From positions 1 to 29,717 of IMG/VR virus record IMGVR_UViG_3300007778_000025: 29,717 nucleotides of DNA. One strand, 5' to 3'. This document shows, one piece after another, positions 3,961 through 21,012 of the stretch. The position numbers and the translations under genes are program-made. Under the pieces are notes generated by a model. The model ran no database searches. It saw nothing but the letters and a program-made list of their open reading frames with translations, and had not been told where the DNA came from. The stretch is from a virus. Lineage: Duplodnaviria; Caudoviricetes. The stretch's first letter is position 1. Every line of letters starts with the position of its first letter.

Positions 3961-4268
3961 AGCGCGACCCCACCCATAACAGCGTAAGTAACTGTCTGGC
4001 TAGGCAAAGGTTGGGCAGACGTTACGCGCAAAACGCGACCAGTAGGGTACACATATGTCACTTCTGCGTATTTAGTCGTCATAGTGCCGTTAACAATCTC
4101 GAAACCTATTACATCAGCAGAGACTGGGATAGTCTGGTTAGTTAACACGAAGTCAGTTTGTGTGCCGCTATAAGTGCCAATAACAAGCTCATAGAATACG
4201 ACTAGGTTATCCGTAACACCTAGCCACAGTTCCTGATTTGGGCCGTATATCTCTAAACCGTAAGCCAT
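3957..4268 (-). CDS. Small tail-tip accessory protein (YGL module)
   Basis: MAYGLEIYGPNQELWL N-terminus. Coupled to the fibre gene by TAATG. Confidence 0.65.
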   Translation of the reverse strand: MAYGLEIYGPNQELWLGVTDNLVVFYELVIGTYSGTQTDFVLTNQTIPVSADVIGFEIVNGTMTTKYAEVTYVYPTGRVLRVTSAQPLPSQTVTYAVMGGVAL

Positions 4269-7200
4269 TACGCTAGATTCCCTAGTCTAACTCTCATGCC
4301 AGTAGCATCATAAATCTTAATCGTGCTAGCTGTCATTTCCATGCGTGCGCCGCTAGACGCTGACTTAATATTAAAGGTCGGTGATATACCAGCTATAGTC
4401 ACGGCGCTTGCGTCCAAGGTACCTGTTTCTATAGCGTCTGCGCTTAGGTATTTAATATAAGTAGAATAGTTAGAGCTGTTAATCTCACTTACAGTAGCAA
4501 ACGCACCTTGGCCTACTATGGATTTAGCATCAAGTAGCGCGTCAGGGTAGTCAACGTGTTGCGACCAACCGGAGACGGAACTAGCGACATCTATACTCCA
4601 GCCCGTTCTCCATTGAGATACACTGTAGTTAGTATGCCCACCGACCCAATTCTTGACAGCGACTTTTGGGTAACTCCAACTAGTAGAAGTAAGACCAATC
4701 AATATAACAGCTTTACCGGACGAGTCAGTGCCGAACCTTACGCGGTTTTGAGCCGCCGTACTACCTACTAAGCTAGCAGAAGTTCTTGTCCACAAAGGGC
4801 CATTATAAGTATACCCACTTAGATGCAACGTAAAACTAGTGTTTGTTCCATAGTCAAACACCGCCACTTCAAACGACATCATTGTGTTGGTAAAGCCTTG
4901 AGGCAATCGTATACGAATACAACCAGTTATAGATGAAGCGCTTGAGTTGTAAGACCCACCTTCAGGGTTGCTTATGCGAGTGACAGCATTTTCTTGTAAA
5001 TAGTTGGATACCCTTGTGTCATCGTAGTTAGTAACGTCTGCGTTATCCGCTGGCCTGCCAGTACCTGTAACACTATTCCAAACAGCAGTGTCGCCTAAGC
5101 CTGCGCCATCTGTTAACTCATTAGTGTTAGTTATATCGTTAGCGACTTTTTCCCATGCGCTGCCGCTATAAGCGTAAAGCGCGGTAGGGTCAGCGTCAGT
5201 GTCATACCATAGATCACCTAAAACATAAGTGCCACCCGTAGGCTGAGAGTTTTGTCTATAGATCGTGTTTCTTGTAGCGTTGTCAGCAGGTTTACCAGTG
5301 CCCGTAACTCCAGTCCATTCCGCCGTGCCACCTAAGTTAGCGCCGTCATTGAGTTGGTCTGTATCGGTTGTGTAGTTACCTATAACTGTCCAGCTAGAAC
5401 CGTTCCACTGACTTACAGTAGTAGGCACTGAATCGGTATCGATCCACAAATCGTTGGTTGAGTACGTGCCGCCCGTAGGCGCTGAAGTTTGTCGATAGAT
5501 ACTACTTTTTGTAGCGTTGTCCTCTGGTAAGGCGGTGTTAGTTGTCATAAGGCTAACTAACTGATCAATACCAGTATCGTTTACCGTGTCTGTACCTACC
5601 GTGGTTTTAGAGCCATAAGCAACAATGCAGTCGGTATCTAGTGGCGTAAATACTTGCCTATTGTTGTAGTTATCGACAGCGAACCAGCGTTTATAGTAAT
5701 CGTCATATACAGCAATGAAAAACTGAGTAGTGTTTGCCGCAAGGAAAGTAAGTGACGAGAAACGAGTTTTTACATTAGACGCAGAGTACAAAACAAAAAA
5801 TCTGTCTTGGACACAAGAACCTTCGTAGTTTGTGTTTATCTCGGAAGCAGTGACGTCAACGCTTGTTCCGTTAGGGTGGTAAAACCTACCCGCCGTTATT
5901 TGTATTTCGCCATTGTTGCCCGTTCCATTAACGAGGGAGTTCTTAATGAACTGGAAGCTACCCATGCCACCAATGGCTGCTCCTGAACTTGCCATGTCTG
6001 CGGCGGCGTCAGGATTAGTGTTCATCTCTTCGATGCGGAAATAATCTACTTCTGTAACCCCTGCAACGCCGGAATAGTTTACGAGTAATAACGGCCTAAA
6101 GAACTTTGCGCTAGAGTGCATCACGCCCGGATTGGTGTAGTCCGGCTTATACCCAGTACCATTACCTGTTGAAGAGAAGTAACCTGTATACTCTGTCCAA
6201 GCGGTTGGCGCATTAATCCCCACACCAGCGAAGTAATGCTGACTACTAGTGGAGTTTGTACCGCTAATATTTACCCACGCTGTGTCAGTGGCGTTACGAC
6301 CAGCAACGCCTAGGTAGAGAATGCCGCTCCCCGCCGTTTGTCTAATTCTAACTTTAATTCTATAAAGCTTACCCGGTGAGATAACGTAACTATTATTGCC
6401 TATTAGCCATTGTTGGTCATTGCCGGAGTTATTACCGATGCGAAGTACTTTACCATCGTATTCACCTAGCCCTGTTGGCAGACTAAGTTCACCTAACCCT
6501 GAATAGTTAGTCCAAGGAAGCTGAGACGTGGACGTATAATTAAACGTTTCTAAAAACCTAGTAGTACTTAGCGTGCCGCCTGTATCTAAGCTAGACCCGC
6601 CAGAGCGGAGAAGTAGCGTCCCATCATCTGCATAAATAGCAACGCGACTAAATTCGGCATCGCCACCGCGATCAATGTACCAGTAAGGACGCCCTGACAC
6701 AGTACTTAGGCTAGACTGAATCGTACCGCTTATCTTCGCATTGGTAATAGCTGCATCGTCAATCTTAGCGTTAGTAATAGCGCCGTCAGCAATCTTAGCT
6801 TCGTCAATGGCAGCAATGCCTACCTTAGCGCTAGTAATACTTGCGTCAGCAATGAACGCTGTGTCGATATACACACCTGCGGGGACATTCACTCCACCCA
6901 CGTTTTGATCCGTAGTTTGTACAATAAACGGAGAGGTGGGGGTAAATACTTCCCAACCAGAGCCGTTGTGGCGGTAGTAAATTTTGTCGTCAGTGTCATA
7001 CCACAGCTGGCCTAAGCTACCAGCAGGTGCTGTATCTTGGGAGTAATCCGTGTCTGGATAAATATAGAAACGGTCAGCGTTAATGCCAAATGCAGTAGTT
7101 GCACCGCCCGCCTCGTTCAAGTCAGATATAAGACCAAAACCTGCAACAGCACCGTTGTTATCTACTTTTACTGAATACTTACCTTGGATGCCGTTAATAG

Positions 7201-8962
7201 ATTGAGCGTTGGTCTGTACAGTAGTAGTTAGAGCGTCCTCACCATCATAGAGAGTAGTATTAACTTGGAAGACCGCCTGCGCTAATGCTGAACCACTGTC
7301 TACTGCTATATTATTTAGCTCATTAATTTCACCATGTGCAGCTGGTAGGCCAGTATTTGGGTCGTTAACTGCGGCTTTTATAGTTGCAAATTGACTAGCT
7401 AGAACTGAGTCACTATTTACATCTATGGTATTAAGAGATGTAATCTCTCCATGTGCGGCGGCCAAGCCAGTATCAGGGTCGTTAACTGAGGCTTTTATAG
7501 TTGCAAATTGGCTAGCTAAAGCAGAATCACTATTTACATCTATGGTATTGAGTGATGTAATTTCACCATGTGCGGCAGCTAGACCAGTATCAGGATCGTT
7601 AACTGTGGCTTTTATAGTAGCGAACTGACTAGCTAAAACAGAATCACTATTTACATCTATGGTATTAAGAGATGTAATCTCCCCATGGGCAGCGGCTAGA
7701 CCAGTATCAGGATCGTTAACTGTGGCTTTTATAGTTGCAAATTGGCTAGCTAGAACTGAGTCACTATTTACATCTATAGTATTAAGTGAAGTAATTTCAC
7801 CATGAGCGGCGGCTAAGCCAGTATTTGGGTCGTTAACTGAGGCTTTTATAGTAGCGAATTGACTAGCTAAGACAGAATCACTATTTACATCTATGGTATT
7901 AAGGGATGTAATTTCACCATGAGCAGCTGCTAAACCAGTATTAGGGTCGTTAACTGTGGCTTGCATAGTCCAAAGCGCTCTAGCAGCGGCTGAATCAGAA
8001 GTTGCTGAAACATCATTAAGTGCAATGATAGCCGCCGAGCTAGTATCAGTTTCTTCTTTAAGTATGCTGAAGTTGCCTAGCTCTTTCCAATAGGTAGTGT
8101 TAGTTGGCACGTTACCTGTTGTAGTTTGTTTAGCTTCATACAACTTCTTATTGTAGTAAACCATGTCCCCTGCTTGGTATGTCGTTGCGGGGTCATAGGC
8201 AACTGCATCTGCAATAGCTTCAACATGGTTGTTGATATTAGTTACGTTGTTATTTATGGTCGGTATAGTAGTGTTTTCTATGTAGTCTATATCGTTATTT
8301 ACTTGTTCAATGTAGTAATTAATTGATCCTTCGACAGTGGAATCAGCGTCAATTAGATCAATCCTACCCGCTAGATCGTCAGCTAACTCGTTTTGAGTTA
8401 TTGATTTGTTAAGTACTTCTAGCAGAAACTCTACGTCAACAGCAGTCTCAGCAAGTGTGCCTCCAACAGCATTAATTGGGCCGCGTTCGTCTGCAATGTT
8501 TACGTTCCTAGCCCAGTAGTATCTAGACTTGCTACCGCCAACAGGGTCGCTATAAACAGCGCCGCCAGCGATACCTACGACAACGGCATTCTCTACGTCT
8601 TGAAACGGAGTAAGGTCGGCGGGGGGTGTTAGTGTATCAAAAGGATCAGTCGCTAAAATCTCTGTATACGCATGGCCCAAATAAGAGGGTAAATCCCAAT
8701 CTAAGGTAACGATGCGGTACCCGCCTGTGGCAGTGAAGCCAGTAACAGGCGAGGGAGTAACATAGCCGCCGCGCTCGAAGTCCTGATCTATTAGGTTGCC
8801 GTTGCGGTCAATAATCCCGTAACTAACTAAATCATCTTTAGTGATAAGGCCATTGGCACCTGCGCCAGATAGCACATCACGAACTCGATCTAAATAAGTG
8901 CGTAAATCTCTAGGTATATTAGAGGTGACTGTAGGTAACTTTGAGCCGGGCTTACTAGACAT
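4268..8962 (-). CDS. Large mosaic tail fibre/host-specificity protein (1564 aa)
   Basis: FN3-like N-terminal part. CBM5/12-like YDPATTYQAGDMVYYNKKLYEAK...YWKELG (about 8075-8197). 39-aa repeats. DUF1983-like GKYSVKVDNNGAVAGFGL...ADRF...VYIDTAFIADASITSAK (about 6760-7230). Lectin-like beta-sandwich (about 6025-6560). 79-aa repeats. J-like end ARMEMTASTIKIYDATGMRVRLGNL. Confidence 0.9.
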   Translation of the reverse strand: MSSKPGSKLPTVTSNIPRDLRTYLDRVRDVLSGAGANGLITKDDLVSYGIIDRNGNLIDQDFERGGYVTPSPVTGFTATGGYRIVTLDWDLPSYLGHAYTEILATDPFDTLTPPADLTPFQDVENAVVVGIAGGAVYSDPVGGSKSRYYWARNVNIADERGPINAVGGTLAETAVDVEFLLEVLNKSITQNELADDLAGRIDLIDADSTVEGSINYYIEQVNNDIDYIENTTIPTINNNVTNINNHVEAIADAVAYDPATTYQAGDMVYYNKKLYEAKQTTTGNVPTNTTYWKELGNFSILKEETDTSSAAIIALNDVSATSDSAAARALWTMQATVNDPNTGLAAAHGEITSLNTIDVNSDSVLASQFATIKASVNDPNTGLAAAHGEITSLNTIDVNSDSVLASQFATIKATVNDPDTGLAAAHGEITSLNTIDVNSDSVLASQFATIKATVNDPDTGLAAAHGEITSLNTIDVNSDSALASQFATIKASVNDPDTGLAAAHGEITSLNTIDVNSDSVLASQFATIKAAVNDPNTGLPAAHGEINELNNIAVDSGSALAQAVFQVNTTLYDGEDALTTTVQTNAQSINGIQGKYSVKVDNNGAVAGFGLISDLNEAGGATTAFGINADRFYIYPDTDYSQDTAPAGSLGQLWYDTDDKIYYRHNGSGWEVFTPTSPFIVQTTDQNVGGVNVPAGVYIDTAFIADASITSAKVGIAAIDEAKIADGAITNAKIDDAAITNAKISGTIQSSLSTVSGRPYWYIDRGGDAEFSRVAIYADDGTLLLRSGGSSLDTGGTLSTTRFLETFNYTSTSQLPWTNYSGLGELSLPTGLGEYDGKVLRIGNNSGNDQQWLIGNNSYVISPGKLYRIKVRIRQTAGSGILYLGVAGRNATDTAWVNISGTNSTSSQHYFAGVGINAPTAWTEYTGYFSSTGNGTGYKPDYTNPGVMHSSAKFFRPLLLVNYSGVAGVTEVDYFRIEEMNTNPDAAADMASSGAAIGGMGSFQFIKNSLVNGTGNNGEIQITAGRFYHPNGTSVDVTASEINTNYEGSCVQDRFFVLYSASNVKTRFSSLTFLAANTTQFFIAVYDDYYKRWFAVDNYNNRQVFTPLDTDCIVAYGSKTTVGTDTVNDTGIDQLVSLMTTNTALPEDNATKSSIYRQTSAPTGGTYSTNDLWIDTDSVPTTVSQWNGSSWTVIGNYTTDTDQLNDGANLGGTAEWTGVTGTGKPADNATRNTIYRQNSQPTGGTYVLGDLWYDTDADPTALYAYSGSAWEKVANDITNTNELTDGAGLGDTAVWNSVTGTGRPADNADVTNYDDTRVSNYLQENAVTRISNPEGGSYNSSASSITGCIRIRLPQGFTNTMMSFEVAVFDYGTNTSFTLHLSGYTYNGPLWTRTSASLVGSTAAQNRVRFGTDSSGKAVILIGLTSTSWSYPKVAVKNWVGGHTNYSVSQWRTGWSIDVASSVSGWSQHVDYPDALLDAKSIVGQGAFATVSEINSSNYSTYIKYLSADAIETGTLDASAVTIAGISPTFNIKSASSGARMEMTASTIKIYDATGMRVRLGNLA
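5054..5527 (-). repeat. Two tandem 237-bp (79-aa) repeats in the large fibre
   Basis: P[EA]DNA starts at 5527, 5290 and 5053 (237-bp spacing). Unit: IYRQ..PTGGTY...DLW.DTD...L.DGA.LG.TA.W..VTGTG. Confidence 0.85.
7260..7961 (-). repeat. Six tandem 117-bp (39-aa) repeats
   Basis: [ga]tcgttaact recurs at 7361, 7478, 7595, 7712, 7829 and 7946. Unit ATVNDP[ND]TGLAAAHGEITSLNTIDVNSDSVLASQFATIK; five near-identical copies plus one diverged. Confidence 0.95.
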
Positions 8963-12167: not shown

Positions 12168-12196
12168 ATTATACAGCTTTGTAACAATACTAGCAA
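12168..12196 (-). promoter_or_regulatory. Sigma70-like promoter for the lysis cassette
   Basis: TTGCTA (12196-12191), 17-nt spacer, TATAAT (12173-12168), in an intergenic gap. Confidence 0.7.
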
Positions 12197-12203
12197 TCAG
12201 AGC

Positions 12204-14963
12204 CTATGTATTTTCCAACGTCGTTAGCCTAGCATCTAGCTCTTTGATAGCGTTTACGACAATAGGATAAGTTTTCATCGGATCAGCTTCCCACTTCTCG
12301 GGATTGTCTTTGTGGACTAGGCGGGTATACGGATGTGACTGCCATTTCTCTTCCACAGCATCAAGTTCTTGAGCAATGAAACCAATGTCAACCTTACCTT
12401 CCATTGATCCGTCACGGCGTTTCCATGTGAACTTAACAGGACGTAGATCCTTGATGAAATCAACACCATATGGGATATCTTCAATTTCATCTTTATCACG
12501 TTCATCGGATAGTGAAGAAATAGTTGTATCGTTACAACGAAGGTTAGTAACTGAAGAGTTGCCTAATGTGATTTCGTTAGAAGCAGCGGTAGAACTTGGT
12601 ACAGCAGCATAACCTAAAAGTGTATTATTGCTGCCTGTCGTTAAGTTACTACCCCCACTACAATATCCAACAGAGGTATTGTGAGAGCCTGTTGTGCCGT
12701 AATTAGCAGCATACCCACCTAAAGCTGTGTTGCCATCTCCTGTTGTATTAGCATAACCAAGAGCACTAAAACCTAAGGCAGTGTTAAGGCAGCCAGTAGT
12801 GTTATTAGCCATAGCAAGTTTGCCAATCGCAGTATTCCACCTACCGGTAGTATTACTGTTAGAAGCAAGCATACCAACTGCGGTATTTTGATCGCCCGTA
12901 GTATTAGCACGTAACGCACAAGTACCTAAGGCAGTGTTATCACACCCTGTTGTGTTACTGAAAAGAGAACCGTAACCTACAGCAACGTTGCTAGAGCCTG
13001 TAGTTAAACTTGCTAGAGCATCAGTACCAGCCACAGTGTTAAAACTTGCATCGGATTCAACTCCACCGCCAGCGGCAGCTAGTGTTATTTTAGATCCATC
13101 ATAAGTAAGTACATCACCAGTAGTGGCACCGGACTGTAAGCCCGGAATTCTTAAACTAGTAATACTAGTATTACCCAGTGTGATTTCATTAGATACTGCA
13201 GCAGCGCTAGGTAACGCATTGTAACCTAAAGCTATATTATTAGAGCCTGTGTATGTTGTAGTACCACTACATGCCGCTGCTGCACCTATGTACGTGTTAT
13301 TGGCAGCGGCACTACCTCTAGACCTACCAGTGTTTGCGCCAATAGATATATTATTTGTGCCAGTAGTACTAGGGAAAACACTTGGCCCTGCGCACTTACC
13401 AATAGCGACGTTACACGATCCATTGTCACCGGAGCTTGCGCCGTTTCCTAAAATTACGTTGTAAGCGCCAGAAATAATTCCATAGCCTGCTTGGTAACCT
13501 AGACCGATATTATCGCTACCCGAAGTAACGTTACACAAGCTCCACAAGCCTAGCGCAACGTTGTCCCAACTAGTAGTAGCAGCACACAATGCTTGATAGC
13601 CAATAGCTATTTGGTCACCGCCCCCATTCTGATTTAAGAGTGCTCCACAGCCAATAGCTACGTGCCAATCACTAGTTGTATTGTTCCTTAGTGCGCATTC
13701 TCCTAGAGCTACGTGGCCATCACCTGTCGTATTACTGTAAAGAGCACAAGTACCTACTGCGGTGTTACTAGATGCTGTATTGGCCCGCAACGCTTGGTAG
13801 CCTACAGAAGTATTGTTATTACCTCCCGCATTACACCTCAATGTGCTCAGTCCTATTGCGGTATTTCGTGACCCAGTAGTGCTTCCATATAGAGAAGCAA
13901 GGCCAACAGCAGTATTACTATTACCGGTTATATTGCTGGACATACTCACATAACCAAGCGCTACATTATTATAACCTGTTGTATTAGCTATAGATGACTT
14001 AAATCCTATCGAAACGTTGTTATTCCCGTAAGTATTAGCACTAAGAACACATTGACCTATAGCCACTGTACTACTACCAAAATTGCCATCATTGCTCATA
14101 ACACATTCACCGATGGCTACTGTTCCATTGGCAGATGGACTACCACATAAAGCGTTATAGCCTATAGCAACAATTCCATAAGAGGTATGTGCCTTTCCAG
14201 CAAAAGCTCCTATTGCGGTATTTCTTTCGTCTATTGTATTAGAATAAAGAGCGCAAGTACCGACAGCAGTATTATTACTACCAGTTGTGTTATTACGAAG
14301 CGAATTAGTACCAACAGCAACAGAATCACTACCTGTTGTATTAGATCTACTAGCTCCATATCCTATAGCAATATGGTTATTTCCGCTGGTATTAGAAAAA
14401 AGAGAAGATGGCCCTAGAGCAGTATTAAAATTTCCAAGTGTGTTAAATCTAAGAGCGTTATGCCCGATTGCAGTGCTGTACGCGCCAGTTGTAGTAGCTC
14501 TAGCGGCATTTACCCCAATTCCTAGATTATAACTACTTAAACTAGCATTTAACGCACCATATCCTACAGAAATATTGCCATAGGTATTTGCAGAAAAGAA
14601 AGAAGCCCTACTACCAACAGCAACGTTTCGTCTTCCTGTAGTATTACAGTATAAAGCATATGATCCTATTGCAACGTTATCAGCACCTGTTGTATTGCTA
14701 TAGAGCGATTGGGGCCCTATAGCAGTGTTATTAATACCAGTCGTGTTATTACGAAGCGAATTAGTACCAACAGCTACGTTGCTATAACCTGTTGTGTTAC
14801 TAGTAAGAGCATCGGTACCAGCGGCTACGTTACACAGTGTAACGTCAGATTTATACTCCAAAGAAGTTTCGACAGCGCTTTTAGTAGTAGCGTCCACAGA
14901 AGCTACGTTTTGCAAGTCGCAACTATCGCCTATAACAGTAGTACCTTGGATTTTGATAGCCAT
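12204..14963 (-). CDS. Cys-rich beta-solenoid fibre/spike with C-terminal Peptidase S74 chaperone (919 aa)
   Basis: Many approximately 17-aa NTTGxxNxA[VIL]GxxAL repeats. C-term SDERDKDEIEDI..GVDFI..LRPVKFTW...GFIAQE...AIKEL (about 12204-12509). Confidence 0.9.
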   Translation of the reverse strand: MAIKIQGTTVIGDSCDLQNVASVDATTKSAVETSLEYKSDVTLCNVAAGTDALTSNTTGYSNVAVGTNSLRNNTTGINNTAIGPQSLYSNTTGADNVAIGSYALYCNTTGRRNVAVGSRASFFSANTYGNISVGYGALNASLSSYNLGIGVNAARATTTGAYSTAIGHNALRFNTLGNFNTALGPSSLFSNTSGNNHIAIGYGASRSNTTGSDSVAVGTNSLRNNTTGSNNTAVGTCALYSNTIDERNTAIGAFAGKAHTSYGIVAIGYNALCGSPSANGTVAIGECVMSNDGNFGSSTVAIGQCVLSANTYGNNNVSIGFKSSIANTTGYNNVALGYVSMSSNITGNSNTAVGLASLYGSTTGSRNTAIGLSTLRCNAGGNNNTSVGYQALRANTASSNTAVGTCALYSNTTGDGHVALGECALRNNTTSDWHVAIGCGALLNQNGGGDQIAIGYQALCAATTSWDNVALGLWSLCNVTSGSDNIGLGYQAGYGIISGAYNVILGNGASSGDNGSCNVAIGKCAGPSVFPSTTGTNNISIGANTGRSRGSAAANNTYIGAAAACSGTTTYTGSNNIALGYNALPSAAAVSNEITLGNTSITSLRIPGLQSGATTGDVLTYDGSKITLAAAGGGVESDASFNTVAGTDALASLTTGSSNVAVGYGSLFSNTTGCDNTALGTCALRANTTGDQNTAVGMLASNSNTTGRWNTAIGKLAMANNTTGCLNTALGFSALGYANTTGDGNTALGGYAANYGTTGSHNTSVGYCSGGSNLTTGSNNTLLGYAAVPSSTAASNEITLGNSSVTNLRCNDTTISSLSDERDKDEIEDIPYGVDFIKDLRPVKFTWKRRDGSMEGKVDIGFIAQELDAVEEKWQSHPYTRLVHKDNPEKWEADPMKTYPIVVNAIKELDARLTTLENT
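14287..14774. repeat. Exact 32-bp direct repeat in the 919-aa fibre gene
   Basis: gtgttattacgaagcgaattagtaccaacagc at 14287-14318 and 14743-14774, 456 bp apart and in frame. Confidence 0.9.
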
Positions 14964-14971
14964 AATAACCT

Positions 14972-15349
14972 CTAGGTGTATTCTTTCTCTTCAACTAGCG
15001 TTGAGTTTAGTAAAACGTTAATCTCGCGCTTGAATGCGGCGCGGCGGTCGTTGGTTTTATACACAGACCGTGCTAACGCAATAAAATCGTCGTCAAACTC
15101 GTTGAGTTTTTCTTTTATGCGTATCGCGTCTTCTATATCCCAAAGCTGCTGATTCACAAGGGATAATCCTTGTAGAGGCTCTGCTATGAGGTGCTTATCT
15201 AATTCTATACCTTCAACAATATTTAGCAAGCAAGTCAGCTCATTACGAACGTTAGCAAGCTTAATAGGGTCTGTAATTTTATCGAGCTTAATTTCTAGAA
15301 TTGTTATCTTATCTAGAAGCTCACCAATGCTAACGGGGGCGCTAATCAT
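14972..15349 (-). CDS. DUF6165-like helical protein
   Basis: APVSIGELLDKITILEIK...VNQQLWDIEDAIR...FIALARSVYKTNDRRAAFKREIN...EEKEY. Start moved to ATG 15349, which overlaps the upstream stop. Confidence 0.85.
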   Translation of the reverse strand: MISAPVSIGELLDKITILEIKLDKITDPIKLANVRNELTCLLNIVEGIELDKHLIAEPLQGLSLVNQQLWDIEDAIRIKEKLNEFDDDFIALARSVYKTNDRRAAFKREINVLLNSTLVEEKEYT

Positions 15350-16250
15350 TGTGGGGTACACTCGGCACAGAGAAAGGCTTACCCATAATATGTTCATCAA
15401 AGAACTGCACTAACACATCCGGCGTTATCATTATGTTTCTAGGGTCATTAATATCAACAGGTGTAAAGTCGTTAGCATGTTTCATAGCGTATGAAAGATT
15501 CTGGTTGTGCGACCAACCAAACTGGTTCCAACGGGTATTCCCCCAAACAACAACACCGCTAACGCCTGTACCTGCACAAAAATGCTGTAAACACGAATCA
15601 ATACTAATAAACCCTGAACTACCTTTAGATAACTCATACACAACAGGCCAAGGCATATCGCACTTAATAGCTTGGGGGTATGCAGCTTCATTTGGCAGTG
15701 TGCAGTCGATAATCGCTACATCAGGGTATTTTTCTTTCAACATAGCCACCAACATATTGGCGAAATACGGAGGGTAATTCCTAGCTATGTTAGAACTTGT
15801 ATAGGGGTTAGCAGGGTTAAATCCGATTGGAGACTGCCCACCAGTCAATTGCACCATGATGTAATCGCCCGTTACGCCGACATCACTAAGCCACTTGCTA
15901 GCCGTATCTGCTAGGTGATCAGTGTAGACTTCGGGTGTCATATCAGTACTAAATTCAACGCCTAGTAAATCACAGTAGCTTTTAAGTAAGTGATCTTTCC
16001 CGCGAACAAACAAACTTTTGTAAGGCTCTACATAAACAATGTCATCAGACGCTAAGATACGAGGGTCATCTAGCATAATAGATCCCATATCGAACGCCAT
16101 CTTGACGTGGGGGTTATTTGCGTAGACGTCTACATAAGGAGTGTGAATTTGCACAGGTTCGCCGTTCTTTTCTGCGAGTTTGGGTAATAGCGAAGTAAAT
16201 GCTACTTGTTTGCCAATACCACCTTCTACTACATATGTTACTAGCGCCAT
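15342..16250 (-). CDS. GT-B fold glycosyltransferase, GT9 (heptosyltransferase)-like
   Basis: N-term YVVEGGIGKQVAFT and C-term FISIDSCLQHFCAGTG..GVVVWGNT...FGW. Start at ATG 16250 after AAGGA. Confidence 0.8.
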   Translation of the reverse strand: MALVTYVVEGGIGKQVAFTSLLPKLAEKNGEPVQIHTPYVDVYANNPHVKMAFDMGSIMLDDPRILASDDIVYVEPYKSLFVRGKDHLLKSYCDLLGVEFSTDMTPEVYTDHLADTASKWLSDVGVTGDYIMVQLTGGQSPIGFNPANPYTSSNIARNYPPYFANMLVAMLKEKYPDVAIIDCTLPNEAAYPQAIKCDMPWPVVYELSKGSSGFISIDSCLQHFCAGTGVSGVVVWGNTRWNQFGWSHNQNLSYAMKHANDFTPVDINDPRNIMITPDVLVQFFDEHIMGKPFSVPSVPHND

Positions 16251-16252
16251 AG

Positions 16253-17074
16253 TTAATTTCCTTGTATCCAATTAAGGGTAGACTTATCAATAGCCTCCCA
16301 AACATTTAGTTGCTTATATTGTTGCCACAAATCATCTGGTATAACCCGTGGCTGTTTTTTATACTCTACTTTGCGTCGGGTGGTATGTAGCCCATCAATT
16401 TTAGCGGCGTCATCAAACTCATCGTATGACGACTCCACGTTATTAAAATCGTGTTGGTAAAACGGTTCACCTAAAAACTCATACACAATCCGCATAACAT
16501 CTGCAGGATAATTAACTAGCGTGCCGTAGGTTATATACAACATGTTGTCTTTGTGGCGACTAACAAAACTAGACGCTAAGTTAACTAGCGGGCCTTTTAC
16601 GTACCCTGCAAGGTCAGTCTCACCCGCTAAAATAGCGCAGCGCTCATAGACGTTAGCGGTATCTCTATGGTGGTACAAAGGCTTAATTGTGAGTGGGTTT
16701 TTTAGATGGAGATGTTCAAAGGAGTTTAAGATATGAGGTACATCGCGTACCAGTACTATCATACGAAAATCAGGATACAAATTGTGTAGCAGCTCTGTAT
16801 CAGCTCACCACCCACGGTTAGTATTAAAGCAGACGTCCGGGCCATCAGCATAAAAGCTATCAAACAACGCACGCATTAACTGCTTGCGCTTTTCAATAGG
16901 GACTAGCGATCCCACACCAACAGAAGATTCAGTATCTCGGATAATAGAGTGGCAATATGCATGTAGTGGGTCTGAAATACTCGCCTTAAATTGAGGGTTC
17001 TGATTTAAAATAGCAGTAAGTAGTGTAGACCCAGAGCGTGGTAGTCCAGAAATAAACCTATATTTCTTCGTCAT
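16253..17074 (-). CDS. Sulfotransferase (273 codons) interrupted by one in-frame TGA at codon 90 (16807-16805); recoded gene, pseudogene or sequence error
   Basis: The two track ORFs 16805..17092 and 16253..16780 share a frame: ...FNTNRGW*ADTELLHNLYPDFRMIVLVRD... The 5'-PSB motif ISGLPRSGSTLL precedes the stop and the 3'-PB-like VRD.....S follows it. Confidence 0.85.
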
Positions 17075-17723
17075 TAGAAGTAACCTGCGCAATCCATGGC
17101 TGAAAGTTACCGATCCAACGTTTTTCTCCGCTATGCGCAGAGTCGATTGTAGGGTCTATATAAACTTTACCGCCAAGAGCTTTCCATTTTGCGCAGAAAA
17201 TAACGTCTTCAGAGTGTAGCTTTCCATCAACAATACCAATGTTAAATACCATGCGGCATGTCTTATTGTCTTCTGAATATTCTTCAGAGTCGTCCCACAG
17301 TTGCTGCAAAGCATCTTTGGTAACCCGTAAAAAACCTGTCCCTACGGAGTCTACTTCCACTAAGCCATTGTCCAAAACTTTATAAGGTTTGGAAACTAAC
17401 TTAATGTTGTATGTAGGAACGTCAGATTTTTTTGGTACAGGGCATCCAACGACGTCAACATCGTGAGATAAAAGCTTAAAGAAGTCTTGGGGGTTCCAAT
17501 CTTGGTCAGTATCAATAAACACCAAGTCGTCTACACCCGTTTTTAGCGCAAGCTGTACAATGTCATTACGAGCACGCTGAACAAGGCTATCAAACGACAT
17601 ATAGATAGGGATAATATTAACCCCATTCTGTATACCGATTTTAGCTGTTTCCGATAAAGCGCACGCGTGCCAAACACCAACAGTGCCGTCGTAAGACGGC
17701 GCTGCTAACATTACGGTACGCAT
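17058..17723 (-). CDS. GT-A fold glycosyltransferase (GT2-like)
   Basis: SLVQRARN, DxD motif FIDTD, VGTGFL, and SEDVIFC..W...GGKVYIDPTI...HSG. Confidence 0.85.
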   Translation of the reverse strand: MRTVMLAAPSYDGTVGVWHACALSETAKIGIQNGVNIIPIYMSFDSLVQRARNDIVQLALKTGVDDLVFIDTDQDWNPQDFFKLLSHDVDVVGCPVPKKSDVPTYNIKLVSKPYKVLDNGLVEVDSVGTGFLRVTKDALQQLWDDSEEYSEDNKTCRMVFNIGIVDGKLHSEDVIFCAKWKALGGKVYIDPTIDSAHSGEKRWIGNFQPWIAQVTSNDEEI

Positions 17724-18031
17724 TACTCGTTAGGCAATGACGTCAATGGGAAGTCAGGCTTGCGCTCAGTAACGGCTGGAGTGTTGTGGGCTTGCCAATG
17801 CGCGTCAAATACGTGATCATTGATTTGAACCATGGCCAACAGCTCAGCTTTTGTAAACTGCTCAGGGGTTTTACCTAAGTATTCTACTTCTTCGCGCTCA
17901 TTGTAAGTGGTTTTCCAACCATTAGAGTCAGCAACGCAGATTACTTCCAATTCCCACTCAGTAACAACACCGTCAGCAGTGCGTACAGTAGGAACAGCTT
18001 TTTTGAGAGTTTTAGTATAAGTCTGAGCCAT
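17723..18031 (-). CDS. Hypothetical protein, first gene of the modification cassette
   Basis: Strong GGAGGT SD. Coupled to the GT-A gene by TAATG. Confidence 0.75.
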   Translation of the reverse strand: MAQTYTKTLKKAVPTVRTADGVVTEWELEVICVADSNGWKTTYNEREEVEYLGKTPEQFTKAELLAMVQINDHVFDAHWQAHNTPAVTERKPDFPLTSLPNE

Positions 18032-18072
18032 TTTCGACCTCCGAAGGATTACTAGGCTGTATTTAAAAACCT

Positions 18073-18101
18073 ATAGTAGTATGTTTATACAATAGATGCA
18101 A
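18073..18101 (-). promoter_or_regulatory. Sigma70-like promoter for the modification cassette
   Basis: TTGCAT (18101-18096), 17-nt spacer, TACTAT (18078-18073). Confidence 0.6.
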
Positions 18102-19392: not shown

Positions 19393-21012
19393 TCAAAATG
19401 GTTGTGAGTTACCAACAAAGTCTTGGGCAAAATAAGTCATATCGACCGTGTAATCTTGCCAAAATAGTGCGCCAAAATCGGTAACAGAACCTTGGTCACT
19501 AATTCCCTTACTTACTGATTTTATAGTAGATTCGCTAACACTACCAATTTCTGTTAGATTTTTATCTACATCTATTAATGTAGCATCTCCAACAGTAGCA
19601 TTGTCAGCGAAAGTACGCAGGAAAGAAAGAAAATATGAAAAACTATCACTAACGCTTGCGCTATCGACATAGTTTCCAACAAAACCTAAGAAAATCTCTA
19701 GCGCATCTGACACAGCGGCTAGATCGTTAATTCCTTTACCTACTGATTTTATAGCGGACTCATCGACGCTACCAACTTCAGATAGGCTTTTGTGTACACC
19801 TAGCGCAGTAGCATCGTCAACAGTAGCATTGTCAGCAAAAGTACGCAGGAAAGAAAGGAAGTACGAAAAACTATCGCTAGCACTTGCGCTATCTACATAG
19901 TTTCCAACATAGCCTAAGAAAATCTCTAGCGCATCTGACACAGAACCTTGGTCACTAAGTACCTTACTTATTGATTTTATAGCAGATTCGCTAACACTAC
20001 CGACTTCCGATAGGCTTTTGTGTACACCTAGCGCGGTAGTATCTTCAAAAGTAATATTGTCAGCGAAAGTACGTAGGTAAGAAAGAAAATAAGAAAGACT
20101 ATCGCTAACGCTTGCGCTATCAGTATACGTACCTACAAAGTCTAAGAAAATTTGTAAGGCATCTGACACAGCAGCTGCATCAGAATAACCTCGACTGTAG
20201 TTAACTGTTCTGTCAAACAAATCACTGACTTGCGCTGTTTCTATGCGTATTTTACTAAACGCTACAGATATCTCGTCTACCGCCGAAGCAAGACCATCTA
20301 AGTCATCTGTCGCATTAACAACATCAATAAACGTTCGCAGGAAATCTACTTGGTATGCAATAGAATCACTGGCGCTAGCCGCATCGCTGGTAGCTTTGTT
20401 TACGTTTAATGCTAACTGCTCGTCAACGGTGTATGCATCAGCAAACTCACGAAGGTAAGAAACAACACGAACAAATGTGTCGGAAACAATAGAGTCGTCG
20501 GATAACGACTTATCTAAGCTAAAGTTAAGCGTATCCGTACCACTCGCCGCGTCAGCTAAGTGATAATCTAGCGAATAAGATAAAGATTCCGTTACTGATG
20601 TTTGGTCTTGATATGTAGTGCCAAAATCATAACTTAAAGTATCAGTAGCGCTAAATGTGTCTGTTAGTAATTTGCCCGCCGACCATGAAATAGAATCTTG
20701 TGCGGAAGATACGTCAGAAAGTTTTTTGTTTACACTTAAAACGCTAGCATCTACGAAGCTCACTTCATTAGATAGGGCTTTAGTAAGTCCAACAGATACA
20801 ATGTCAGATACAGTAAATGTGTCAGATAGCTGTAAAGCTAAAATAAACTGCCCAAAAAGAAGAGGCGTAGTGGTTATAAACTTAGCGTTTACAGCGCCAG
20901 ATATATCTTGGGCAGTAACATCAGAAGATAACGCTGTATAGGTAAGCGTAGCTTTAGGGCTAGCTGCAGCTAGCGAACCCGCTACATTGGAAGGCGTTAT
21001 CTCCATAGCCAT
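19393..21012 (-). CDS. Ser/Asp-rich repetitive structural protein (about 19-aa period)
   Basis: Recurrent K.LSD.xS.SD and RTF.D motifs along most of its length. Flanked by structural genes. Confidence 0.75.
   Translation of the reverse strand: MAMEITPSNVAGSLAAASPKATLTYTALSSDVTAQDISGAVNAKFITTTPLLFGQFILALQLSDTFTVSDIVSVGLTKALSNEVSFVDASVLSVNKKLSDVSSAQDSISWSAGKLLTDTFSATDTLSYDFGTTYQDQTSVTESLSYSLDYHLADAASGTDTLNFSLDKSLSDDSIVSDTFVRVVSYLREFADAYTVDEQLALNVNKATSDAASASDSIAYQVDFLRTFIDVVNATDDLDGLASAVDEISVAFSKIRIETAQVSDLFDRTVNYSRGYSDAAAVSDALQIFLDFVGTYTDSASVSDSLSYFLSYLRTFADNITFEDTTALGVHKSLSEVGSVSESAIKSISKVLSDQGSVSDALEIFLGYVGNYVDSASASDSFSYFLSFLRTFADNATVDDATALGVHKSLSEVGSVDESAIKSVGKGINDLAAVSDALEIFLGFVGNYVDSASVSDSFSYFLSFLRTFADNATVGDATLIDVDKNLTEIGSVSESTIKSVSKGISDQGSVTDFGALFWQDYTVDMTYFAQDFVGNSQPF
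19487..20170 (-). repeat. Three tandem 228-bp (76-aa, 4x19) repeats
   Basis: gcatctgacaca at 19703, 19931 and 20159. Unit VSDAL.IFL..VG.Y.DSAS.SDS.SYFLS.LRTFADN... Confidence 0.9.

Follow-up and report, generated by a model that had tools for sequence, protein, structure and literature searches.

A six-gene block among virion genes

The stretch of DNA analyzed here (the window) is the 29,717-base virus record IMGVR_UViG_3300007778_000025 of IMG/VR. Genes on its minus strand specify a major capsid protein of P22-coat-like type, an adaptor of the SU10 type, proteins of the tail and of the virion interior, a holin and a lysozyme; the phage looks like a short-tailed type. A first-pass annotation of this sequence had described six tightly packed genes lying among structural genes and away from replication functions, with an enzyme cassette coupled to a cysteine-rich fibre. 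The block is borne out: its genes all lie on the minus strand, from 18031 down to 12204 (Table 1), and, read from the gene for the 102-amino-acid (aa) protein to that for the fibre, they are joined by a 1-nucleotide (nt) overlap, a 17-nt overlap, a 2-nt gap, an 8-nt overlap and an 8-nt gap. Its location is likewise as described, with virion and lysis genes as neighbours and no replication gene among the 31 open reading frames (ORFs) scanned in this 29.7-kb fragment. Three freshwater metagenome runs contain contigs covering the block; no RNA run is listed as containing it. No membrane segments were found in the five cassette proteins encoded ahead of the fibre.

Table 1. Features of the gene block, listed from the 102-aa gene to the fibre gene and followed by the proposed promoter
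Feature	Position	Strand	Basis
102-aa small phage protein, DUF7936-like	17723..18031	-	ESM Atlas feature score
GT-A-like glycosyltransferase	17058..17723	-	phrog_1574; DTD motif, residues 69-71
Sulfotransferase of the 3'-phosphoadenosine 5'-phosphosulfate (PAPS) type, 273 codons	16253..17074	-	PF13469; TGA at 16807-16805 in this assembly
GT9-fold (GT-B) transferase, 302 aa	15342..16250	-	structure model, GT9 matches
DUF6165 protein	14972..15349	-	PF19662, E 4e-7
919-aa fibre/spike with Peptidase_S74 end	12204..14963	-	phrog_23837, E 3e-139
Promoter of the first-pass annotation, probably not a part of the block	18073..18101	-	unsupported

The fibre consists of 17-residue xxALxxNTTGxxNxA[IV]G repeats followed by a C-terminal Peptidase_S74 chaperone domain (aa 819-870). 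Searches of its sequence against the PDB gave no match, and Foldseek gave none at E<=0.001. A structural model of aa 641-800 is a left-handed beta-solenoid nearest to the YadA head (Z 14.6, root-mean-square deviation (rmsd) 2.2, 130 aligned residues), with which left-handed beta-helix enzymes of the LpxD/GlmU type tie. The protein is indeed rich in cysteine, with 21 of 919 residues (2.3%), whereas the five large structural proteins for which cysteines were counted have 0-0.75%. Most of these cysteines occupy variable repeat positions (1, 2, 5, 6 and 11), which are probably surface-exposed, to judge from how variable and polar they are. Within a repeated fibre segment, the window differs from its twin contig L001 by ten substitutions in 25 bases (14289-14313), which change four residues and add a cysteine; these differences reflect either repeat exchange or mis-assembly. 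Fibres of this type are often followed by an uncharacterised protein of about 82 aa (e.g., L156, L158 and L126 6312-6560), with or without a GT9-like gene, which is likely to be a fibre assembly factor; it is present in 41 of the 88 clusters of the fresh fibre sample described below.

The promoter proposed upstream of the block did not hold up. It agrees with 7 of 12 consensus bases and is missing from the 17 sites that a search of the 10-20 kb region gave (20.7 in shuffles); moreover, in the relative L077 the fibre stop is separated from the 102-aa gene by only 10 nt, which bears against the cassette having a promoter of its own. The best promoter-like site, with 10 of 12 bases, lies at 12168-12196 (minus strand), right after the fibre gene and before the lysis genes, in a region where the overall site count is at the chance level.

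The GT9-fold enzyme, its companions and their linkage to fibres

The model of the 302-aa protein (predicted local distance difference test score 93) has the GT9-type fold that the annotation had assigned to this glycosyltransferase, matching GT9 enzymes at Z 19.4-23.9 (TibC 20.2; WaaF 21.2 and WaaC 19.9, with rmsd 3.2 and about 250 aligned residues), with the next unrelated GT-B at Z 12.6. Its N-terminal motif reads EGGIGK where WaaC has TSSMGD, so that Lys14 falls at the position of the catalytic Asp13 of WaaC and the canonical aspartate is absent. Asp13 is the proposed catalytic base of WaaC (bioRxiv 2021.06.16.448588) and Asp110 is that of TibC (PMC4358343). The pattern GG.G[KR], with either lysine or arginine, is found in all 122 distinct full-length phage homologues in the loci collected, against an aspartate at this motif position in WaaC and WaaF and the reading EQGxGD in every one of the 73 (of 120) DUF6165-fused bacterial relatives with a motif match. 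The donor-binding residues are kept: D218 and H223 align with WaaC D261 and H266, and R157 with the WaaF equivalent of WaaC Lys192 (weak hhalign hits), D218 and H223 being invariant and R157 nearly so among relatives. The window protein does not match TIGR04414, the model of the bacterial autotransporter heptosyltransferases (BAHT), to which its relatives score 13-16 bits against a cut-off of 200, and all scores to the NCBIfam models of lipopolysaccharide (LPS) enzymes are far under their cut-offs. The conserved four-cysteine iron finger of the BAHT is lacking, with no cysteine in invariant or near-invariant columns, and the first residue of the model aligns to TibC residue 96, leaving it without the N-terminal beta-barrel. 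A single-sequence search for loci with this protein returned the twin contig and one weak match only, and an alignment search was used instead; in viral contigs the subfamily is matched 346 times, as opposed to 3 loci in 185,579 cellular genomes, the two counts being made with slightly different patterns.

The DUF6165 assignment agrees with the Pfam match; many longer homologues are fused to TPR and/or PF01075 GT9 domains, and these fusions suggest that the protein is likely an accessory to the GT9-like enzyme. The family call of the sulfotransferase stood, but the annotation overlooked that codon 90 is an in-frame TGA; in L001 the gene is intact, and its product matches PF13469 at E 2e-14 (54.6 bits, cut-off 27). 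Codon 90 is TGC in L001, which is 99.9% identical to the window over 12.2 kb, and in 3 of 3 covering runs, examined as contigs, two of which may be the window's own source. Selenocysteine or UGA readthrough was considered and rejected, as 97 alignments contain no stop at this position, the residue being S, P, T, A, N, G or I, with Cys only in L001. Given the TGC codons and the stop-free homologues, the sequence comparisons indicate that the TGA is an assembly error or a minor (nonsense) allele and not recoding. PAPS-binding motifs are retained, with P12, R13, G15, R110 and S118 invariant in what we take to be the motifs named 5'-PSB and 3'-PB. The nearest solved relatives of the phage profile are the tyrosylprotein sulfotransferases TPST1/2 (E 2.5e-15), whose PAPS-binding motifs it shares; however, the phage protein is soluble, lacking a membrane segment, and the similarity is distant and extends to CurM and NoeE. 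Tyrosine is outside the six top differences associated with the sulfotransferase in GT9-negative fibres. A second context of this family (L033-L045) consists of arrays of RCC1-repeat proteins with genes for DUF4376, 2OG-Fe(II) oxygenase, methyltransferase and TPR proteins, without GT9 or the window-type fibre, and the sulfotransferase neighbourhoods in S-SKS1 and S-SRM01 are mostly unannotated.

The GT-A call is favoured by the DTD motif and the phrog_1574 match (E 3e-18), but the window protein has no Pfam match. Among 35 aligned relatives 15 match Anp1 and 13 Glycos_transf_2, and the profile weakly matches PDB 2c0n A197 (E 0.0036), which we take to be a GT-A of an archaeal virus; the assignment is thus an indirect one, by way of relatives. 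The family has at least 573 viral matches. The 102-aa protein (feature score 0.92 to viral DUF7936 clusters) is likely a fibre accessory: its gene usually lies directly before the GT-A gene and near a repeat fibre, and it occurs in 9 of the 88 fresh clusters, mostly by cysteine-poor fibres.

Across phages, the fibre-linked enzyme cassette is real and widespread. Counting loci without de-duplication, a repeat fibre is present in 64 of 80 loci anchored on the GT9-like gene (the best 80 of 346 matches), and in 53 of them it ends at most about 370 nt upstream; 14 of the 80 also contain the sulfotransferase, 9 the GT-A and 13 DUF6165. The 74 sulfotransferase-anchored loci contain GT-A (55), an adenosine 5'-phosphosulfate (APS)-kinase-like gene (52), the GT9-like gene (38), a carbamoyltransferase (32) and the fibre (25), and the GT-A-anchored loci (80 of at least 573 matches) the sulfotransferase (55), the fibre (45) and the GT9-like gene (44). 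The coupling of enzymes to fibre put forward in the first-pass annotation thus holds as a linkage across unrelated phages, but not as one fixed pathway, given how few GT9-anchored loci hold each companion. The annotation had named a lack of linkage to such fibres as grounds for abandoning its proposal; since the co-occurrence check found linkage across unrelated phages, and enzyme families that fit protein decoration, that objection falls away. L077 has the window's five enzyme and small genes in unchanged order, with identities of 53-64% and a fibre upstream, together with neck genes that we take to be of the T4-like family. As the window phage looks short-tailed, it is likely that cassette and fibre were transferred together as one unit. 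The fibre also adjoins a GT9-like gene in the cultured phages HTVC111P and HTVC112P; Venkman, CRP-7 and vir515 have the fibre with no GT9-like match anywhere in their records. The GT-A and sulfotransferase are separable add-on modules, since they also occur by cysteine-poor fibres. Larger cassettes (L002-L032, L189-L260) further include genes for a carbamoyltransferase, a GT4, an FkbM methyltransferase and an epimerase, as well as an APS-kinase-like gene and a second sulfotransferase, and their fibres are the most cysteine-rich, at about 0.9 Cys per unit.

Cysteine in the repeats and the GT9-like gene

We compared the cysteine content of the repeats between fibres with and without a neighbouring GT9-like gene. 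A first set of 163 fibre ORFs, partly collected through the enzymes, gave 127 clusters at 70% identity, 125 of them with at least 5 units. The median number of Cys per repeat unit was 0.56 in the 98 clusters with the gene against 0.02 in 21 without it (p 3e-8); these negatives were required to have at least 2 kb downstream, and six further negative rows were left out for short flanks. Over 2414 units, cysteine is confined to positions 1, 2, 5, 6, 11 and 12 (4.5-13.6% each), against <=0.5% elsewhere; the negative table in this analysis was pre-filtered to cysteine-poor rows and is valid for positions only.

Because part of the first set was gathered via the enzymes, a fresh sample was chosen by the S74 end only, with a query alignment of 4 cysteine-poor and 11 cysteine-rich rows. 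It comprised 158 new loci (the best 80 of 604 and the best 80 of 539 matches, less two already in hand), of which 111 had enough repeats and yielded 88 new clusters. At a cysteine-richness threshold of 0.15, fixed after an earlier result was known, all 8 scorable clusters with the gene are cysteine-rich against 8 of 62 without it, or 3 of 40 when the negatives are those with at least 1.2 kb downstream (Fisher 4e-7). On a cysteine-masked tree of 148 rows, gene and cysteine richness form a 53/6/3/86 table, with 17 changes of state for the gene and 15 for cysteine richness; among 10 independent pairs, cysteine changes in the same direction as the gene in 5.6 and in the opposite direction in 0 (median p 0.03). 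The trees behind these figures are quick and FastTree trees of about 140 columns, the S74 ends may recombine with the repeats, and the contigs are mostly fragmentary (5-79% complete).

The association extends beyond the fold of the window fibre. The upstream non-enzyme protein has at least 1.2% Cys at 88 of 103 GT9 anchors, as against 7 of 32 GT-A-only anchors, and loci with a cysteine-poor repeat fibre have other proteins, with 10-11% Cys, just upstream of the GT9-like enzyme (P-SSM2, L178). In the cultured cyanophage P-SSM2 (L159 23562-26428, genes 304 and 306), two such proteins of 355-356 aa and 10% Cys lie directly upstream of the GT9-like gene, a carbamoyltransferase and heptose genes. 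In L143-L145 the GT9-like gene lies among several 320-aa Kelch-like repeat proteins with a CTESYNG motif (1.2-3.4% Cys).

Candidate modification of the fibre and its alternatives

We propose that this mobile cassette modifies the phage's own fibre, probably by S-glycosylation of cysteine together with sulfation, a reading that as a whole we place slightly short of an even call. The GT9-fold enzyme, a candidate cysteine S-glycosyltransferase assisted by DUF6165, would move a sugar from a nucleotide-sugar onto fibre cysteines at the variable repeat positions, in the cytoplasm and after translation. Some homologues, including that of P-SSM2, are flanked by heptose-pathway genes, which makes an ADP-heptose-like sugar the likely donor. 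The GT-A and sulfotransferase would add a further sugar and sulfate, from host donors, to the fibre glycan or to neighbouring hydroxyl residues, tyrosine being an alternative acceptor for the sulfate. The purpose may be the tuning of receptor binding or the capping of reactive thiols. On chemical grounds, a thiol acceptor should not need a general base and could profit from a nearby cation; taken with the exchange of Asp for Lys/Arg and the scatter of cysteines over variable positions, this would point to S-glycosylation of the fibre. That the GT9-like protein has the cysteine-bearing fibre of the same phage as its target is quite likely; that this protein forms an S-glycosidic bond is a close question on which we lean marginally towards no, and whether the sulfate ends up on the virion is evenly balanced.

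Several points weigh against this proposal, which is a prediction from genes and structural models. In 4.4 of the 10 independent pairs there is no difference in cysteine, and p ranges from 0.03 to 0.25. GT9-like genes occur by cysteine-free fibres (L139, and L120, whose upstream protein has 0% Cys), and six cysteine-rich fibres have no GT9 on their contig, each being cut by the contig end. Equating Lys14 with Asp13 requires that the N-terminal register be free of gaps and relies on where the alignments start, and loss of the aspartate is compatible with a dead enzyme too. Chloroplast NAD(P)H dehydrogenase (NDH) chains also match the model (Z 18.4-19.7), the top one tied with WaaC, and the GT9-fold chain of that complex is presumably non-catalytic. 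The occurrence of the sulfotransferase and GT-A beside cysteine-poor fibres, and of RCC1-repeat proteins with the sulfotransferase in 13 of 74 loci, leaves a single pathway unsupported. Neither a sugar-synthesis nor an APS-kinase gene is among the window ORFs scanned.

The cassette might instead O-glycosylate Ser, Thr or Tyr of the fibre, or N-glycosylate Asn, in the style of TibC or HMW1C, and sulfate the glycan, with cysteine as a linked trait of another role. TibC is a close fold match that modifies an adjacent beta-helical adhesin (PMC4358343), and Ser and Thr together make up 23% of the fibre, whose 38 sequons compare with 23 +/- 4 in shuffles. Yet N-x-T sequons are as frequent in the presence of the GT9-like gene as in its absence (0.62 vs 0.62), and serine is lower with it. 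This independence, together with a model that matches GT9 best, also speaks against the HMW1C-like route to Asn that the annotation had invoked, and N-glycosylation at N-T-T was rejected on the same pattern, being enriched over shuffles yet independent of the enzymes. An invariant acid at position 9 could serve as a base, but it is common to bacterial relatives that retain the aspartate; tyrosine at variable positions is higher with the GT-A (0.57 vs 0.27, 0.83 vs 0.57), but an Asp/Glu shift accompanies this trend, which may be due to habitat or lineage. We regard O- or N-glycosylation of the fibre as unlikely, though deserving of some weight.

A non-catalytic role, in which the GT9-like protein is a chaperone or binding factor for the folding or thiol separation of a cysteine-studded fibre, whose cysteines serve disulfides or metal, would explain the cysteine co-variation equally well. 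It also suits the loss of the catalytic Asp and an NDH chain as close in fold as WaaC, and the virions of phage Milano have extensive disulfide networks (PMC10491603). We nevertheless judge it improbable. The residues for donor binding are conserved, without exception at D218 and H223 and almost so at R157, and the gene lies in clusters with those for carbamoyl- and methyltransferases and for additional glycosyltransferases. Cysteines at the same position in neighbouring repeats are no commoner than in shuffles (39 vs 35.6, 23 vs 29.1, 39 vs 38.4, 16 vs 16.2), a comparison that covers this one pairing geometry; ladder disulfides at identical repeat positions were accordingly rejected.

The enzymes could also remodel the LPS or another surface glycan of the host against competing phages, their adjacency to the fibre arising since both concern the receptor. 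GT9 enzymes are LPS heptosyltransferases, heptose-pathway genes adjoin the P-SSM2 homologue, and this is the published reading for glycosyltransferases of the pelagimyophage host-recognition clusters (PMC7029224). However, it does not predict position-specific cysteines in the fibre, and it has to contend with the low NCBIfam scores, the near absence of the subfamily from cells and the lack of a membrane component in the cassette, which together make it a distinctly improbable account. Hypermodification of phage DNA is very improbable: phage glycosyltransferases acting on DNA bases are known (bioRxiv 2023.12.21.572611), but the annotated frequent neighbours are structural, lysis or sugar-tailoring genes, and the cysteine co-variation would be left unexplained.

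Among known systems, the proposed S-glycosylating cassette would, by analogy, work most like TibC/TibA, yet it falls outside both the BAHT and the canonical GT9 enzymes. It shares with TibC/AAH and their partners TibA/AIDA-I (PMC4358343) a GT9-like GT-B fold, a beta-solenoid adhesin partner and many repeated sites, but the phage enzyme has Lys/Arg for Asp110 and lacks the iron finger, the beta-barrel and a TIGR04414 match, its partner is a YadA-like fibre, and the co-varying residue is Cys, not Ser. Mycobacteriophage glycosyltransferases have been proposed to decorate virion proteins (Freeman 2023, via PMC11256854 and PMC12619734); there capsid and tail tube subunits are glycosylated, whereas in the window the fibre is the likely target and a GT9-fold enzyme is joined by a sulfotransferase. 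The pelagimyophage clusters (PMC7029224) and the carbamoyltransferase/heptose block of P-SSM2, which has a GT9-like homologue, similarly place sugar enzymes amid tail-fibre genes; the published reading there is modification of the host O-chain, and the terms "cysteine" and "sulfotransferase" are absent from the main text of PMC7029224.

S-glycosylation in glycocins is carried out by GT-A enzymes. Sublancin, glycocin F and thurandacin (PMC9877059) have a sugar on the cysteine sulfur, as proposed for the window fibre, but at single sites in small peptides, whereas the fibre would have many sites in a structural protein and a GT-B enzyme. Protein S-glycosylation is rare (PMC9877059), and the function of phage sulfotransferases has been described as unclear (PMC10580990). 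Our literature search, whose coverage stopped short of subscription journals and supplements, found no report of S-glycosylation or sulfation on a phage particle. The prospect of a new chemistry is appreciable, though we would lean against it. The broader picture is equally tentative: a widespread, virus-specific GT9 subfamily may have turned into a cysteine S-glycosyltransferase through replacement of its Asp base by Lys/Arg, setting tens of thioglycosides along several fibre folds, tailored by optional GT-A, GT4, carbamoyl-, methyl- and sulfotransferases, as a thiol-based sulfated glycan code on the virions of abundant aquatic phages, including those of SAR11 and Prochlorococcus. The co-variation names a target residue for aquatic-phage sugar genes usually taken as modifiers of host LPS. 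The reading can be tested in the cultured HTVC111P, HTVC112P and P-SSM2, for which Venkman and CRP-7 provide natural negative controls; should it prove true, it would entail a new host-recognition chemistry and a many-site S-glycosyltransferase useful for stable glycoproteins.

Elsewhere on the minus strand of the window, an acyltransferase-like gene (2430-2852, phrog_4470) lies amid virion genes and adjoins that for an S74-bearing internal virion protein (1455-2426). In a 1564-aa tail protein (4268-8962), a 39-aa repeat is present in 5.5 copies at 7324-7969; the protein also matches CBM5/12 weakly and has 29 sequons, a number that does not exceed that in shuffles. Finally, a 539-aa Ser/Asp-rich protein of the structural region (19393-21012), with three 76-aa repeats (228-bp period) and no cysteine, is a possible alternative acceptor for the GT-A.

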